A stretch of DNA of 14,561 nt, from positions 69,513-84,073 of IMG/VR virus record IMGVR_UViG_3300028388_003891. One strand, written 5' to 3'. A program made the position numbers and the translations under genes. Shown here piece after piece: positions 2,834 through 14,561 of the stretch. The stretch comes from a virus. Its lineage: Duplodnaviria > Heunggongvirae > Uroviricota > Caudoviricetes. Numbering within the stretch: the stretch's first letter is position 1; each line of letters opens with the position of its first letter. The notes under the pieces are model-generated. The model searched no databases, was not told the DNA's origin, and saw nothing but the letters and a program-made list of their open reading frames with translations.

Positions 2834-3115
2834 ATGAACATTATTTTTCACAATGCAGTTATCATTGCGATTGTAGTTGGCATTCCACTGGCCACAATTT
2901 CTTCACTCAATCATCTGTTCGGCTTATCGATCGCTCTTGACTTTTATTCGTGGCTATCGGCATCGATGATCTGGTTGTTTATTGCTTCCGCGTCTCGCAA
3001 CAAGCCAGTTCAAACCACACCGATTATCAGTGTGCCAGTGACGCCTGAGGTACTCGAAGAGATGAAATCTCTTCACAAAAAGAAAATGGAGGAAAGCACC
3101 GACGAGTCGCAATAG
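2834..3115 (+). CDS. Hypothetical membrane protein (two TM helices, charged tail)
   Basis: ATG lies 1 nt after the upstream stop; hydrophobic N-terminal half; SLNHLF...WL pattern. Confidence 0.7.
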   Translation: MNIIFHNAVIIAIVVGIPLATISSLNHLFGLSIALDFYSWLSASMIWLFIASASRNKPVQTTPIISVPVTPEVLEEMKSLHKKKMEESTDESQ

Positions 3116-3137
3116 CGAGTCGCCTATATACTTGACA

Positions 3138-3188
3138 GTCACACTGGAATAGATCCACAGTGGCTAATATCTAAGGGGTTTAGATATG
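3138..3188 (+). promoter_or_regulatory. Structured 5' leader of the NadM-Nudix gene, copy 1 of a duplicated element
   Basis: GTCAC-ACT-GGAATAGATCC-ACA-GTGGC-TAA-TATCTAAGGGGTTTAGATATG. Hairpin 1 is followed by hairpin 2, which covers the SD (TAAGGGGT) and the A of ATG. The element recurs at 4203-4253. Confidence 0.8.
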
Positions 3189-4211
3189 CGATATGATACT
3201 GCGGTAGTCATCGGCCGCTTTCAACCGATGCACAAAGCTCACGAACACCTAATTCGTGAGGCCCTCCAAGTCGCCGATAAGGTGATCGTTCTCGTTGGTA
3301 GCGCGATGCTGCCTCGTACGTACAAGAATCCATGGACGTACCAAGAGCGAGAAGCAATGATCAATAGCGTGTTTTACAGCAGCGACAAGCCTGTCCTGAT
3401 ACGTCCGATCATCGACACGCCATACAACGACACCGTATGGATACGCTCAGTGCAACAGACTGTCCACGATGCCAACGCACAATGTGGTACGCCTGATGGG
3501 TCGGTTGTGCTTGTTGGCCATACAAAAGACGACAGCTCATATTACCTGTCGATGTTTCCACAATGGGCGTACCTTGAGGTCGACACTGTCGAGCCCCTCA
3601 ATGCGACCAGTGTGCGAGAGCTGTACTTCAAAGACGATTTTAATCTCAATTTTTTGGTTGGGGTGGTTTCAACGGAAGTACTTAACCGGCTGTCGGACTT
3701 TGTTGCGTCGGACCATTATGAGGAGGTTAAGCGTGAGAGGATGTTTATAGAAGAGTACAAGCGACAGTTCTCGAGCATTCCTTACCCAATGACATTCGTC
3801 ACGGTCGACGCCGTTGTCGTGTGCCTTGGCCATGTGCTGATGGTGAAGCGCGATAAGTTTCCCGGACGTGGTTTGCTTGCACTGCCGGGTGGGTTTTTGG
3901 ATGCAAACGGCGACAAGACGTTAGTCGATGCTGCTGTACGAGAACTAAAAGAGGAAACCAACATCAAGCTACCTGCTAAGACGCTACGCAAGCTGATAGT
4001 GGACAGCGAAGTATTCGACGGTATTGATCGTTCATTGAGAGGACGCACCATAACGCATGCGTTCTTTATCGAGCTGTCTGATGCCACACTGCCAAAAGTC
4101 GCTGGGGGCGATGATGCACGTAGTGCTCATTGGGTGCCAGTTGGCGAAGTTGAAAGTGAGCAGTGCTTTGAGGATCACTTTCAAATCATTCAACACTTTA
4201 TCGGCGCATAG
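3186..4211 (+). CDS. nadM: Bifunctional NMN adenylyltransferase / ADP-ribose pyrophosphatase (NadM-Nudix, NatV-like)
   Basis: N-terminal VIGRFQPMHKAH (HxGH-like nucleotidyltransferase motif), KNPWTYQER and GHTKDDSSYYL; C-terminal Nudix box PGGFLD...AAVRELKEETNI, SLRGRTITHAF and GGDDA. Confidence 0.95.
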   Translation: MRYDTAVVIGRFQPMHKAHEHLIREALQVADKVIVLVGSAMLPRTYKNPWTYQEREAMINSVFYSSDKPVLIRPIIDTPYNDTVWIRSVQQTVHDANAQCGTPDGSVVLVGHTKDDSSYYLSMFPQWAYLEVDTVEPLNATSVRELYFKDDFNLNFLVGVVSTEVLNRLSDFVASDHYEEVKRERMFIEEYKRQFSSIPYPMTFVTVDAVVVCLGHVLMVKRDKFPGRGLLALPGGFLDANGDKTLVDAAVRELKEETNIKLPAKTLRKLIVDSEVFDGIDRSLRGRTITHAFFIELSDATLPKVAGGDDARSAHWVPVGEVESEQCFEDHFQIIQHFIGA

Positions 4212-4253
4212 GAATAGATCCACCGCGCCATTTATCTAAGGGGTTTAGATATG
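4203..4253 (+). promoter_or_regulatory. Structured 5' leader of nadV, copy 2; overlaps the nadM stop codon
   Basis: GGCGC-ATA-GGAATAGATCC-ACC-GCGCC-ATT-TATCTAAGGGGTTTAGATATG. The invariant blocks and spacing equal copy 1; the outer stem has a different sequence but full pairing. Confidence 0.8.
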
Positions 4254-5627
4254 GAATTTGCAAACAACATCGCGCTCAACACCGACTCTTACAAAGTCAC
4301 CATGGATCGCCAGTATCCACCTGGCACCGAATACATCTACAGCTATGCAGAATCACGTGGCGGACGTTATGGCAAAACTGTGTGGTACGGTCTGCAGGCG
4401 TACATCAAAGAGTACCTGCTCAAGCCAGTTACAATGAAGCAAGTCGACCACGCCCGCGCGATGTGGAACATGCACTTCGGTAATGATCTGTTTCCGTACG
4501 AGGGGTGGAAGTACATTGTTGAGCAGCACGGTGGCTTACTTCCTGTTCGTATCGAATCGGTACCGGAGGGCGAGGTGGTGCCAATGGGGATACCTTTGCT
4601 GTCAATTGTCAACACTGATCCAAAAGTGCCGTGGTTGTCAACGTGGTTGGAGCAGTCTCTGCTTCGTGCAATATGGTACCCGACCACTGTTGCTACTCGG
4701 TCAAACATGATTCGTGGACTGATTGTTGATGCCCTCGAGCAATCCGGCACTCCTGAAGACATCGATTTTAAACTGCACGACTTCGGCGGACGAGGCGCTA
4801 GCTCTTTTGAGACAGCAGCAATCGGTGGTTCAGCACATCTCGTCAACTTCAAAGGGACCGACACGATGCAAGGTGCAATGTTTGCTCGTGAGTACTATGG
4901 TGAAGTGATGGCAGGATTCAGTATCCCAGCTTCCGAGCACAGCACAATAACCTCGTGGGGCCGCGATCGAGAGGTCGACGCATACCGCAATATGCTCAAC
5001 GCCTACCCTGAGGCTCCTGTGATTGCTTGTGTTAGTGACAGCTACAACATCTTCGATGCAGTACACGAACTGTGGGGCAAACAGCTTAGGCAAGAGGTGA
5101 TCGATAGTGGTCGCGTTGTCGTAATACGTCCTGACAGCGGTGATCCCCTGTCGACTGTACTCAAGGTGATCGAGCTCGCCGCGAAGCAGTTTGGCTATAC
5201 TACGAACGACAAAGGGTACAAAGTACTCAACCATGTTCGTGTCATCCAAGGTGACGGCGTCAACGAAGATACGATTAGCAAGATCCTGCAAGCGATGCTT
5301 AACCGCAAATGGAGCGCCGACAACATTGCGTTCGGTATGGGCGGAGCTCTATTGCAGGGCGTCGATCGAGACACCCAGAAGTTTGCGTTGAAGTGCAGCG
5401 CTGCGTTCTACGATGGGAAGTGGAACGACGTGTACAAGAGCCCGATCGGCGACAAAGGCAAGCACAGCAAGGCTGGACGCGTTGTCGCCAACCGCACCGG
5501 TAGTGGAGAATGGTTTTCTTCGACAATTGAACAGGCGAAGCGACCAATGTTCCAACTGGTGTTTGAGAACGGCAAGCTGTACAACGAAACGACGTTTGCA
5601 GAGATTCGTGAGCGGGCCACTGCTTGA
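4251..5627 (+). CDS. nadV: Nicotinamide phosphoribosyltransferase (NAMPT/NadV)
   Basis: Motifs TDSYK, LHDFGGRG, PASEHS, VSDSY, IRPDSGD, IQGDG, FGMGG, QKFALKC and SKAGR; 458 aa. Confidence 0.96.
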   Translation: MEFANNIALNTDSYKVTMDRQYPPGTEYIYSYAESRGGRYGKTVWYGLQAYIKEYLLKPVTMKQVDHARAMWNMHFGNDLFPYEGWKYIVEQHGGLLPVRIESVPEGEVVPMGIPLLSIVNTDPKVPWLSTWLEQSLLRAIWYPTTVATRSNMIRGLIVDALEQSGTPEDIDFKLHDFGGRGASSFETAAIGGSAHLVNFKGTDTMQGAMFAREYYGEVMAGFSIPASEHSTITSWGRDREVDAYRNMLNAYPEAPVIACVSDSYNIFDAVHELWGKQLRQEVIDSGRVVVIRPDSGDPLSTVLKVIELAAKQFGYTTNDKGYKVLNHVRVIQGDGVNEDTISKILQAMLNRKWSADNIAFGMGGALLQGVDRDTQKFALKCSAAFYDGKWNDVYKSPIGDKGKHSKAGRVVANRTGSGEWFSSTIEQAKRPMFQLVFENGKLYNETTFAEIRERATA

Positions 5628-5960: not shown

Positions 5961-6188
5961 ATGGACATCAACCCCAACGACTTTTACCAAATCTGGATCC
6001 GTCGGCGTCAGGCGGCGTGCTCACATGTCGAAACGGTATACCTCCGCGCTCGAGATCAAGAACACGCGGACGAGATCGCTTACCTGATGTTCGGCGATGC
6101 TTACCAGATCAAGGCTGTGCTGCCGATGAACAAGGCCCTTGAAGAGGAACCGTGTGGCTGCGGCAGAACTATCACAACTGGAGTGTAA
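5961..6188 (+). CDS. Hypothetical protein (75 aa)
   Basis: AGGAGG RBS before ATG5961; stop lies 1 nt before the kinase start. Confidence 0.7.
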   Translation: MDINPNDFYQIWIRRRQAACSHVETVYLRARDQEHADEIAYLMFGDAYQIKAVLPMNKALEEEPCGCGRTITTGV

Positions 6189-6189
6189 C

Positions 6190-6630
6190 ATGCTTTATAT
6201 AATTCGGGGACTGCCTGGATCCGGCAAGACTACTCTTGCACAACGGATGTCTGCTGGTTCGATTGCACATTATGAGGCTGACATGTTCTTCGAGCTTGAT
6301 GGGTATCAGTTCGACGCATCCAAACTCAAGCAAGCCCATGAGTGGTGCTACCGTCAGACAGAAAAGCAGGTCATCGAAGGCAACGATGTCATCGTGGCAA
6401 ATACTTTCACCCGGCTACGGGAGATACAACCCTACGTTGAAATGGCAGAAGGGTATGGTGAATTCGTAACCATTATCACGTGTACTGGCAATTTTCGGTC
6501 AGTACACGACGTTCCCGAGACGACTATCGATAAGATGAAAGCCCGCTTTGTGTCCAACGAGCAGATCAAACAAGCGTTTGGAACTGATATTAACATCACA
6601 ACTTACGGGGGCGACGATGTTTCCGTTTGA
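6190..6630 (+). CDS. P-loop kinase, AAA_33 / polynucleotide-kinase-like
   Basis: Walker A GLPGSGKTT at the N-terminus, HYEADMFF, AHEWC, VIVANTF and VHDVP. Stand-alone, with no HAD phosphatase domain. Confidence 0.88.
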   Translation: MLYIIRGLPGSGKTTLAQRMSAGSIAHYEADMFFELDGYQFDASKLKQAHEWCYRQTEKQVIEGNDVIVANTFTRLREIQPYVEMAEGYGEFVTIITCTGNFRSVHDVPETTIDKMKARFVSNEQIKQAFGTDINITTYGGDDVSV

Positions 6631-7498
6631 TATTAAGCAGTACGTCGAAGCAAACCCCGACTTGGTGGTGCGCCGTGAGAGCAGGCAGTACCCCGGTCTG
6701 TTCGTGATCAAGTACCATCGTCGAGTGTTTTACAAGAACCTGTGGACGCCTGAGCTTTGTGAGCTTCGTGGACTGGTGGTCGACGCTGACTACAACGTTG
6801 TTGCTCGTCCGTTCACCAAAGTGTTTAACCGCGGCGAGAACGGTACTGACTTTGATGTTAACCAGTTCGTAACCGCGGTCACAAAGATCAATGGGTTTAT
6901 GGCTGCGGCAACAACGACGGAACAGTATGGCTTGCTGATCAGCACGACGGGGTCATTAGAATCCGACTACGTTGGCATTGCCGCAAAATATCTGCGGCAT
7001 ACGTCTATCGAAAACTCGCTGCTGCCGGGATTTACTTACTTGTTTGAAATCTGCGATCCTAGTGACCCACACATTATCGACGAGCAAAGCGGCGCTTATC
7101 TGATTGGCGGCCGTGAGCTCACGACCGGTGAGATGCTCCGAGAACGAGAGCTCGACTGGGTGGCTGAGAGGTTGCACGTGTTGCGTCCGAGACATTTCAC
7201 AGTTCGGTTTGGCGACCTGCTGAATGCAATGCGCACGTGCCAGCATGAGGGATACATGGTATACAGCGGTAAAAAAGCGCTCAAACTAAAGTCGCCGTAC
7301 TACCTTGCCAACAAGTTAATGGCACGTATGCGCGACACCAAGCTGGATAAGTGGTTGGATAGTGGCCAGATTAAACAAATCGTTGACGAGGAGTACTACC
7401 CCCTCGTCGACCACATTAATGACAATCGCGAGCATTTTATGACTTTAGACGAACAAGCTCGCCTACAATACATGAAGGATTTTTTACACAATGTCTGA
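6617..7498 (+). CDS. rnlA: RNA ligase, T4 Rnl1 family
   Basis: CELRGLV, RPFTKVFN, motif I KINGF, STTGS, TYLFEI, EGYMV and KLKSPYY. Confidence 0.9.
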   Translation: MFPFDIKQYVEANPDLVVRRESRQYPGLFVIKYHRRVFYKNLWTPELCELRGLVVDADYNVVARPFTKVFNRGENGTDFDVNQFVTAVTKINGFMAAATTTEQYGLLISTTGSLESDYVGIAAKYLRHTSIENSLLPGFTYLFEICDPSDPHIIDEQSGAYLIGGRELTTGEMLRERELDWVAERLHVLRPRHFTVRFGDLLNAMRTCQHEGYMVYSGKKALKLKSPYYLANKLMARMRDTKLDKWLDSGQIKQIVDEEYYPLVDHINDNREHFMTLDEQARLQYMKDFLHNV

Positions 7499-9324: not shown

Positions 9325-9849
9325 ATGGAACCAAAAGTTTTCGACTTCCCTGCAATTAAGGAGTCGATTAAGCGAAGCCCAACGAACAGCTCTGTATACA
9401 TTGGAGCTGACTCTAAAGTGTTTACCCGACATGGTAAGCAGATGGTCGCGTACGTTACAGTAATCATTCTTCACTATGGATCGAGCAAGGGTGCAACCAT
9501 TTTTAAGAGTCACCGTACCGATTACTACTACGGTCAAGTGCGCACTCGTCTGATGGGCGAGGTGACAGATGCTATTGCTGCTGGAATGGAGGTCGTCGAT
9601 GTAATTGGCGATCGAGCGTTTGAGATTCATCTCGATATCAACCCCGATCCTCGCTTCAAGAGTTCAGAGATCATTCGCGAAGCTACTGGTTACGTGATGG
9701 GTACTCTTGGCATCGAGCCAAAGATCAAGCCCGACAGTTTTGCTGCATCAAGTGTTGCCGATCGCTACTGCGTACGTGATGCTCGTAGTAAAATGGACAC
9801 GCCAGCACAGCGTCGTCGGCACCGCGATGGTCATCGACCACGTGTTTAG
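9325..9849 (+). CDS. RNase H-like protein, YkuK/DUF458 family
   Basis: YIGADS, RLMGEV, EIHLDIN, ATGYV and IKPDSFAASSVAD; AAGGA RBS. Confidence 0.85.
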   Translation: MEPKVFDFPAIKESIKRSPTNSSVYIGADSKVFTRHGKQMVAYVTVIILHYGSSKGATIFKSHRTDYYYGQVRTRLMGEVTDAIAAGMEVVDVIGDRAFEIHLDINPDPRFKSSEIIREATGYVMGTLGIEPKIKPDSFAASSVADRYCVRDARSKMDTPAQRRRHRDGHRPRV

Positions 9850-13349: not shown

Positions 13350-13745
13350 ATGACAGATCGAAAAGTGATCGAAACAACGCTTGACATCTTGATCAAGATT
13401 CGTGAGATAGCTACTGCAGATCCTGATGCCTTTTGGACTGGAATCTGCAATGCGTATCTTAAGATTTTGGACCCAGAAGAGGCCGGTCCGTACGAAGAGG
13501 CCGGTGTGTACGACAAGGCCGGTCTGTACGACAAGGCGCTCGTCGAACATGTGATGAACCTGTGGCCCAAAGTAACCGCCGACGAATGGTGCGACTTTCC
13601 TGTTCCCGATCCGGCAGGACGTGATCCATATACCGCATACTTTCACCACCAGTCCGCACGGACACTGTGGAAGGGTGAGTACGGCGCACTGCGATTTGAG
13701 TTGCTGGACTTCGTAATTGATGAACTGACTGCGCGTCTCAAGTAA
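13350..13745 (+). CDS. Hypothetical protein with an internal 6-aa tandem repeat
   Basis: ATG lies 2 nt after the upstream stop; contains AGPYEE-AGVYDK-AGLYDK. Confidence 0.75.
   Translation: MTDRKVIETTLDILIKIREIATADPDAFWTGICNAYLKILDPEEAGPYEEAGVYDKAGLYDKALVEHVMNLWPKVTADEWCDFPVPDPAGRDPYTAYFHHQSARTLWKGEYGALRFELLDFVIDELTARLK
13480..13537 (+). repeat. 18-bp tandem repeat, three copies plus a partial
   Basis: AGGCCGGTCCGTACGAAG / AGGCCGGTGTGTACGACA / AGGCCGGTCTGTACGACA / AGGC. Confidence 0.9.
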
Positions 13746-14238: not shown

Positions 14239-14561
14239 ATGAAGTGCAAACCTATCGAAGAAATGGCTAGCATTTGCCCCGACTGCGGTGAAGATATATT
14301 TGAAATTCATGCAGAGGATTTCAACAAGATGCGGGCCCAGCTTGCGGGGGCGAAGAGGAGGCATAAACCCATGATTCACACCCCTAAAGAAGAGTGGCCT
14401 GAGTGGTTGCAAAAGGCACATACCAGAAATGCCTTAGTGACCGTAGACGAGAACGGTTATGTCACGTGGCACAGCGGTGAGTGGCTCGACGGTCAGTGGC
14501 ACGGCGGTGTGTGGCTCGGCGGTGAGTGGCACGAAGGAGTGTGGATCGACGGTGAGTGGCT
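14239..14561 (+). CDS. Partial ORF running off the right edge, with W-x-x-G-x pentapeptide repeats; alternative in-frame start at 14371
   Basis: Manual translation MKCKPIEEMASICPDCGE...MIHTPKEEWPEW...WHSGE-WLDGQ-WHGGV-WLGGE-WHEGV-WIDGE-W. GAGGAG-type RBS before both ATG14239 and ATG14371. Confidence 0.75.
   Translation, partial: MKCKPIEEMASICPDCGEDIFEIHAEDFNKMRAQLAGAKRRHKPMIHTPKEEWPEWLQKAHTRNALVTVDENGYVTWHSGEWLDGQWHGGVWLGGEWHEGVWIDGEW

Follow-up and report, generated by a model that had tools for sequence, protein, structure and literature searches.

The nicotinamide salvage locus described here lies in a window of 14,561 nucleotides (the whole stretch of DNA that was analyzed), which is part of an 87,243-base IMG/VR record of an uncultured phage that is about 47% complete. 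Two genes of NAD metabolism stand next to each other on the + strand (Table 1), i.e., nadM-Nudix, with Pfam matches to CTP_transf_like (4e-11) and NUDIX (4.5e-17), and nadV, with matches to NAMPT_N (2.5e-30) and NAPRTase (3e-56). The Pfam results (NMNAT plus Nudix; NAMPT) agree with the identities that an earlier note on this DNA had given to both genes. Two copies of a 50-nt element (3137-3188 and 4202-4253) are located directly 5' of nadM-Nudix and nadV, respectively. Just 3' of nadV, Pfam identifies an AAA_33 kinase-like ORF (6139-6630) that overlaps the ORF of a T4 Rnl1-type RNA ligase (6548-7498), and the two may form an RNA-repair pair. A UPF0227 family protein (151-732) and an RNaseH_like PF04308 protein (9325-9849) are encoded among otherwise unannotated + strand ORFs. 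Two repeats, both coding, are also present, namely, a 15-nt tandem repeat of at least four copies (14466-14555; within the open ORF 14239-14559) and an 18-nt repeat of three copies (13480-13537; within ORF 13350-13745).

Table 1. Genes and leader features of the NAD salvage locus in the window
Feature	Position	Strand	Description
TATATACT box	3125..3132	+	4 nt 5' of P1 copy 1; possible promoter -10-like element, tentative assignment
P1 copy 1	3137..3165	+	outer stem 3137-3142/3160-3165, small internal loop (RNAfold MFE)
P1 copy 1, inner part	inner stem 3145-3148/3154-3157; pentaloop 3149-3153	+	pentaloop AUAGA (RNAfold MFE)
P2 copy 1	3167..3187	+	stem 3167-3174/3180-3187, loop GGGGU 3175-3179 = Shine-Dalgarno (SD)
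nadM-Nudix	3186..4211	+	NMN adenylyltransferase + Nudix ADP-ribose pyrophosphatase type, 341 aa
P1 copy 2	4203..4229	+	outer stem 4203-4207/4225-4229, 3x3 internal loop (RNAfold)
P1 copy 2, inner part	inner stem 4211-4213/4219-4221; pentaloop 4214-4218	+	pentaloop AUAGA (RNAfold)
P2 copy 2	4233..4251	+	stem 4233-4239/4245-4251, loop GGGGU 4240-4244 = Shine-Dalgarno (SD)
nadV	4251..5627	+	nicotinamide phosphoribosyltransferase, 458 aa

The earlier note had based the element on two sequence blocks, GGAATAGATCCAC at 3146-3158 and 4211-4223 and TATCTAAGGGGTTTAGATATG at 3168-3188 and 4233-4253, and all of these coordinates are exact, with two copies of each block detected by pattern search. The 21-mer TATCTAAGGGGTTTAGATATG was matched in none of 200 shuffles even when up to three mismatches were allowed, and a repeat finder joined both copies into one 66-nt pair of 76% identity. 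A third copy is absent from the window, as had been claimed, and also from the whole 87,243-base contig, according to pattern search and covariance model alike. The covariance model R1 scored copy 1 with 39.7 bits and copy 2 with 41.3 bits (E about 1e-5 in their own contig), values that arise partly by construction because the window copies belonged to the R1 seed; independent copies from bacteria and cultured phages reached covariance-model scores of 25-56 bits.

RNAfold predicts an identical fold of two hairpins, P1 and P2, for both copies (z = -4.1 for copy 1 and -2.7 for copy 2; 53-nt elements). The inner stem of P1 is formed by GGA/UCC around the pentaloop AUAGA, and both copies share the loop context A-AUAGA-U with L071 and one copy of Synechococcus phage B23. 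The variable flanks pair with each other in spite of their different sequences, i.e., copy 1 has AGUCAC/GUGGCU and copy 2 has GGCGC/GCGCC, and two positions differ on both sides of the stem. The internal loop of 3x3 nucleotides that had been described for both copies was recovered for copy 2 only, and RNAfold gives a 2x2 loop plus an extra U-A pair for copy 1. The earlier note overlooked that the 21-nt block is not a plain ribosome-binding site (RBS); it folds as the second hairpin P2, (A)UAUCUAA-GGGGU-UUAGAUA(U), whose loop contains the SD sequence and whose 3' arm takes up one or two bases at the start of the AUG. In copy 1 the A and the U of the start codon (3186-3188) lie within this arm (predicted energy of -4.5 kcal/mol), and in copy 2 the closing pair of the stem includes the A of the AUG at 4251-4253 (-3.4 kcal/mol). 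The 5' arm of P1 copy 2 is placed within the last codons of nadM, whose stop codon TAG (4209-4211) overlaps the inner stem, which indicates that copy 2 is internal to a bicistronic message.

The box TATATACT upstream of copy 1 is confined to the + strand of the 87-kb contig, where it has five sites in total (the others at 3269, 55507, 62083, and 78709), and it may be a phage promoter box. A sigma70 consensus scan found no promoter before copy 1. Relatives carry a T4-late-like TATAAATA box or a sigma70-like -10 element at an equal distance 5' of P1.

Homologues of NadV with 50-60% identity were taken from about 80 IMG/VR contigs. Most of their nadV upstream regions contain G-AUAGA-C enclosed by a stem of arbitrary sequence, then a short linker and a second hairpin that presents GGAGN, GGAAC, or GGAUU in a 5-nt loop and ends at the ATG. 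Of about 85 IMG/VR phage loci, nearly all show this architecture 5' of nadV, of nadM, or of an operon with nadM. A second copy is located 1-2.4 kb upstream, 5' of nadM-Nudix or of a small ORF preceding nadM. In 66 of 66 nonidentical instances, the distance of the start codon from the P2 end is between -5 and +3 nt, and the window copies (-2 and -1) fall within this range. They likewise share the other family features, i.e., an RNNGA pentaloop (mostly AUAGA) with a G-C or A-U closing pair in P1 and the SD sequence in a 5-nt GGNNN loop (here GGGGU) in P2. Model R2 was matched 105 times in the 85 phage loci, in every case on the strand that carries the gene and either directly before nadV or about one nadM length upstream. 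Among cultured phages, the leader precedes both genes in Synechococcus phage B23, Xanthomonas phage LucasX, and Synechococcus phage BUCT-ZZ01 (AAAGA loop), and leader matches are absent from Acidovorax phage ACP17, Myxococcus phage Mx1, the KVP40-like phi-pp2, Aeromonas phage 31, and Klebsiella phage PMBT1.

In some relatives the leader also heads small ORFs of 81-155 aa (phrog_33851 and phrog_12218; L009:87-440, L026:1114-1437, L058:1532-1882, L082:156-524, and L059:2184-2426), at least one of which lies directly 5' of nadM in the same orientation. These small ORFs have no Pfam match, only unknown families among the PHROGs, and no lead from Atlas. One phage lineage (L017, L029, L039, and L045-L050) retains P2 alone before nadV (GAUUAGGAGCUAAUC, around 2470-2500), right after the stop codon of the upstream gene and with a full leader about 1 kb upstream, which suggests that P2 can work without P1.

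The claim that pairing is kept under sequence change was borne out by many compensatory changes among the homologues in both stems. In the anchored alignment A2 of 66 sequences, 81% of the cells pair, compared with 54% in shuffles and 28-45% with slid partners, 15 of 16 pairs are changed on both sides, and P2 pairs in 97.7% of its cells with up to four pair types per position, whereby the pairing figures are somewhat inflated, as the picking of instances for A2 favors pairing beside the loops. A model-based alignment of 82 matches including bacteria gave the same covariation result. The pentaloop AUAGA and its closing pair are invariant or nearly so, with ACAGA, AAAGA, AGAGA, AUGGA, and GUUGA as variants, among which only G4 and A5 are fixed. 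About seven nucleotides are fixed outside the SD sequence; the stems of P1 vary between perfect helices of 9 bp and helices interrupted by 2x2 or 3x3 loops, and the predicted energies of P2 lie between -2 and -4.5 kcal/mol across the family. No conserved alternative pairing or pseudoknot partner was found among the relatives, and the loops of P1 and P2 are not complementary. Three further structural candidates were rejected. In the window, UAGAU of the P1 loop could pair with AUCUA of P2, but the relatives and loop variants offer no consistent partner in the linker, in P2, or in the first codons. An anti-SD sequence in the 3' arm of P1 (CUCC) is limited to a few relatives, and the short U run 3' of P1 that a terminator or attenuator would need is found only in some nadV-type copies and is absent from the window and from bacteria.

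The leader is specific for its pathway. Whole genomes that carry it contain one to four copies, every one of them at the NAD locus and on the sense strand. Five phage records of 200-355 kb, two of them complete, have two to four copies each, all inside the NAD cluster, and five bacterial genomes of 3.7-6.4 Mb have exactly two copies each, 5' of nadM and nadV. Among 151 genomes of one order, 19 harbor one or two copies and none harbors more, with the copies of a pair being about 1.1 kb apart on one strand. The pathway specificity that the earlier note had proposed from the window is thus also seen on the scale of whole phage and bacterial genomes. Exactly two gene starts of the window's own contig have a hairpin of at least 6 bp with a GG-loop abutting the ATG, and both are the leader copies, which argues that P2 is part of the element and not a general RBS style of this virus.

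In bacteria, the leader is present in Lysobacterales, Variovorax, Methylococcaceae, Thiodiazotropha, and Sulfurovaceae, with Xanthomonas, Lysobacter, Luteimonas, Dyella, Arenimonas, Pseudoxanthomonas, Thiothrix, and Marinicella among the carriers; some small MAG contigs among the bacterial matches may be misbinned phages. Because bacterial chromosomes carry the leader, too, it is not phage specific, and the tuning to NAD-depleting host immunity that had been proposed is only one possible use. Both copies of Lysobacter enzymogenes (L127:1783-1868 and 2940-3003) have an ACAGA loop, and the nadM copy is located 3' of a TTGACG-N16-TAGCAT box, from whose position P1 would start a few nucleotides from the 5' end of the transcript. 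Contigs from RNA libraries of four studies align to this locus and span both leaders and both genes, and one of them starts about 18 nt 5' of P1; transcript starts, strand, and level cannot be read from such contigs, which may include DNA, and they were therefore given no weight. For the window itself, no sequencing runs were listed. A cobalamin riboswitch (93 bits; L199:4442-4673) located just 3' of nadV in one proteobacterial MAG is unrelated to the leader.

The leader appears to be undescribed in public resources. The novelty that the earlier note had tied to absence from Rfam holds, since Rfam 15 gave no family at the element (searched up to an E value of 10 for the window copies, 1 for the phage relatives, and 5 for the bacterial copies). 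The Rfam models of NAD+-I and NAD+-II did not match up to E = 10, neither on 2900-4500 nor on 3125-3195. A literature search on RNA control of nadV and nadM and on NARP2, which covered the NARP2 preprint and the NrtR paper, retrieved no description of the leader, and the latter paper (PMC2330246) mentions neither a hairpin nor a phage.

The core of the earlier reading, i.e., a structured, covarying, and pathway-specific leader that is a candidate riboswitch or translational operator, is therefore supported, and the leader is probably an undescribed control element for NAD salvage. Both window copies are members of a widespread two-hairpin mRNA leader that would jointly control the translation of nadM-Nudix and nadV. 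The weak hairpin P2, whose 5-nt loop contains the SD sequence and whose 3' arm includes or abuts the start codon, may gate the binding of the 30S subunit, and P1, a few nucleotides upstream, may present the invariant pentaloop (AUAGA here; RNNGA family-wide) on a stem of free sequence as the recognition site of a trans-acting factor. This factor, most likely a protein, would bind P1 and lock (perhaps open) P2 and thereby set both enzymes together. The reading that we tentatively prefer is accordingly a pathway-specific translational operator, at which a bound protein would lock P2 and repress both genes.

Three components of this model, namely, repression, the protein nature of the factor, and the identity of the protein, we infer from the architecture and the distribution of the leader. 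The predicted energies of P2, only -2 to -4.5 kcal/mol, are in line with a hairpin that blocks initiation only when a factor is bound. A protein is favored because, as in known protein-bound operators, the loop of a hairpin carries the information and internal loops are tolerated in the stem, and the tolerant P1 stem together with the lack of a conserved alternative pairing or pseudoknot is a pattern typical of protein-recognized hairpins. Since the leader moves with both genes between distant hosts, the factor should be universal, a metabolite, or one of the two enzymes. The simplest candidate would be NadM-Nudix or NadV, with binding modulated by ligands of the NAD pathway, because the leader travels with both genes through distant phages and bacteria. 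Against this model stand the close homologues of both enzymes in the leader-less phages ACP17, Mx1, and phi-pp2 and the lineage that retains P2 alone before nadV, and riboswitches, too, are typically widespread and strictly tied to one pathway.

A new riboswitch class, with NAD+, NMN, nicotinamide, ADP-ribose, or PRPP as a direct ligand of the RNA that alters the access to SD and AUG (e.g., with a pocket where the P1 pentaloop docks on the loop or stem of P2), is a serious but somewhat less probable rival. The leader occurs in phages of different hosts and across several bacterial phyla, each time together with the same gene pair, as would be expected of an element that works without a host-specific factor. 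The marginal stability of P2 would allow a small binding energy to switch it, and the two-hairpin layout recalls guanidine-II. However, about seven fixed nucleotides outside the SD sequence are a very low information content, and there is neither a junction nor a conserved internal loop nor a pseudoknot. The stems of P1 extend from perfect 9-bp to 2x2- and 3x3-loop helices, the two loops are not complementary, none of the mutually exclusive pairings used by expression platforms is seen, and the loop itself varies (AUAGA, ACAGA, GUUGA, and others).

We consider it unlikely that the leader is constitutive and has no sensor at all, with P1 protecting the 5' end or marking processing and P2 fixing the translation rate and the enzyme ratio. 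Many P1 copies indeed follow TATAAATA-type or sigma70-type boxes and begin within a few nucleotides of the transcript start predicted there, and some nadV genes retain P2 alone, but P1 is placed inside a polycistronic message in copy 2 of the window and in several relatives, where it overlaps the nadM stop codon. Moreover, a protective hairpin does not require an invariant loop, and the same genomes show the element at no gene other than these.

It is highly improbable that the leader is a DNA operator of a transcription factor such as NrtR. P2 of the window (ATATCTAAGGGGTTTAGATAT) is a perfect 8-5-8 palindrome of 21 bp and thus resembles most NrtR sites, which are 21-bp palindromes (PMC2330246), but the GT-N7-AC core of these sites is absent and the arms are not conserved. 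They change freely while staying complementary, and only the center is fixed, which is the reverse of a protein-DNA operator. In addition, none of the matches (105 plus 82) is on the antisense strand, the loop of P1 is asymmetric, and the element lies over the SD sequence and the AUG and not over a promoter. A recent local duplication of an RBS cassette that is functionless in itself would explain the 13 plus 21 identical nucleotides of the window copies, but it is already contradicted by the same architecture with different sequences at about 100 independent loci and can practically be dismissed.

Tight control of the two genes would be plausible in view of their cost. NadV and NadM-Nudix constitute NARP2, by which phages rebuild NAD+ against NAD-depleting defenses, and the NARP2 genes overproduce NAD+ at the expense of PRPP, which is drained; cloning of the KVP40 operon in E. 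coli was prevented by its toxicity (bioRxiv 10.1101/2024.02.11.579819). Published control of nadV or nadM-Nudix in phages was not found in the literature search. A leader common to both genes in phages and bacterial chromosomes provides a concrete 50-nt object for studying the regulation of NAD salvage. To our knowledge, the known regulators of bacterial NAD metabolism are only protein repressors and two riboswitch classes that act on other genes, and the leader could add a third RNA sensor related to NAD or a new example of an enzyme that regulates its own mRNA. It is possible, albeit speculative, that it represents a new class of metabolite sensor, i.e., a minimal two-hairpin riboswitch or an RNA-enzyme-metabolite feedback loop, which reads the NAD status and switches on the nicotinamide salvage pair. 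If so, bacteria would use the leader for NAD homeostasis, phages would have captured it with the genes, and phage NARP2 would be expressed only when host defenses deplete NAD+. Tractable hosts are available with Lysobacter enzymogenes, Xanthomonas, and Variovorax, as are the phages LucasX, B23, and BUCT-ZZ01.

With respect to known systems, NrtR, NadR, and NiaR are transcriptional regulators of nadV and nadM in other bacteria (PMC2330246). Their sites are DNA operators with conserved arms, whereas the leader is strand specific, shows RNA-like covariation, and covers the SD sequence and the AUG. The riboswitches NAD+-I (nadA motif) and NAD+-II (pnuC motif) are, like the leader, cis-acting leaders of NAD metabolism genes, and NAD+-II also acts on the ribosome-binding site. 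The leader lacks the bulged tandem domains of NAD+-I and the SD-sequestering pseudoknot of NAD+-II, and it is associated with different genes (nadM and nadV) in different taxa. In guanidine-II (mini-ykkC), a variable linker connects two short hairpins, each with a conserved loop, just 5' of the start codon, a layout that the leader shares. Each guanidine-II hairpin has an ACGR tetraloop, whereas the loops of the leader (AUAGA and GGGGU in the window; RNNGA versus SD in the family) are unlike each other, not self-complementary, and without ACGR. The genes that the leader precedes are unrelated to those of guanidine-II, and Rfam gave no match.

PyrR, a protein with a phosphoribosyltransferase fold, binds the mRNA of its own pathway and acts mostly by transcription attenuation. 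The likeness is conceptual: in the pyr leaders, which precede the genes of a pathway that uses PRPP, a purine-rich hairpin loop is recognized by an enzyme-like protein of that pathway. NadV is of another phosphoribosyltransferase class, and a resemblance to the PyrR loop was discarded because the Rfam PyrR model gave no match. The protein-bound translational operators of E. coli thrS, gene 43 of phages T4 and RB69, and the MS2 and PP7 coat proteins are short hairpins with a sequence-specific loop near or enclosing the SD sequence and the AUG, in which the stem sequence is free and the pairing is kept. The bound protein, often the product of the gene itself, blocks initiation. The leader differs from these operators in that it serves two different enzyme genes, spans phages and several bacterial phyla, and is divided into two separate hairpins with the SD sequence in the loop of the second.
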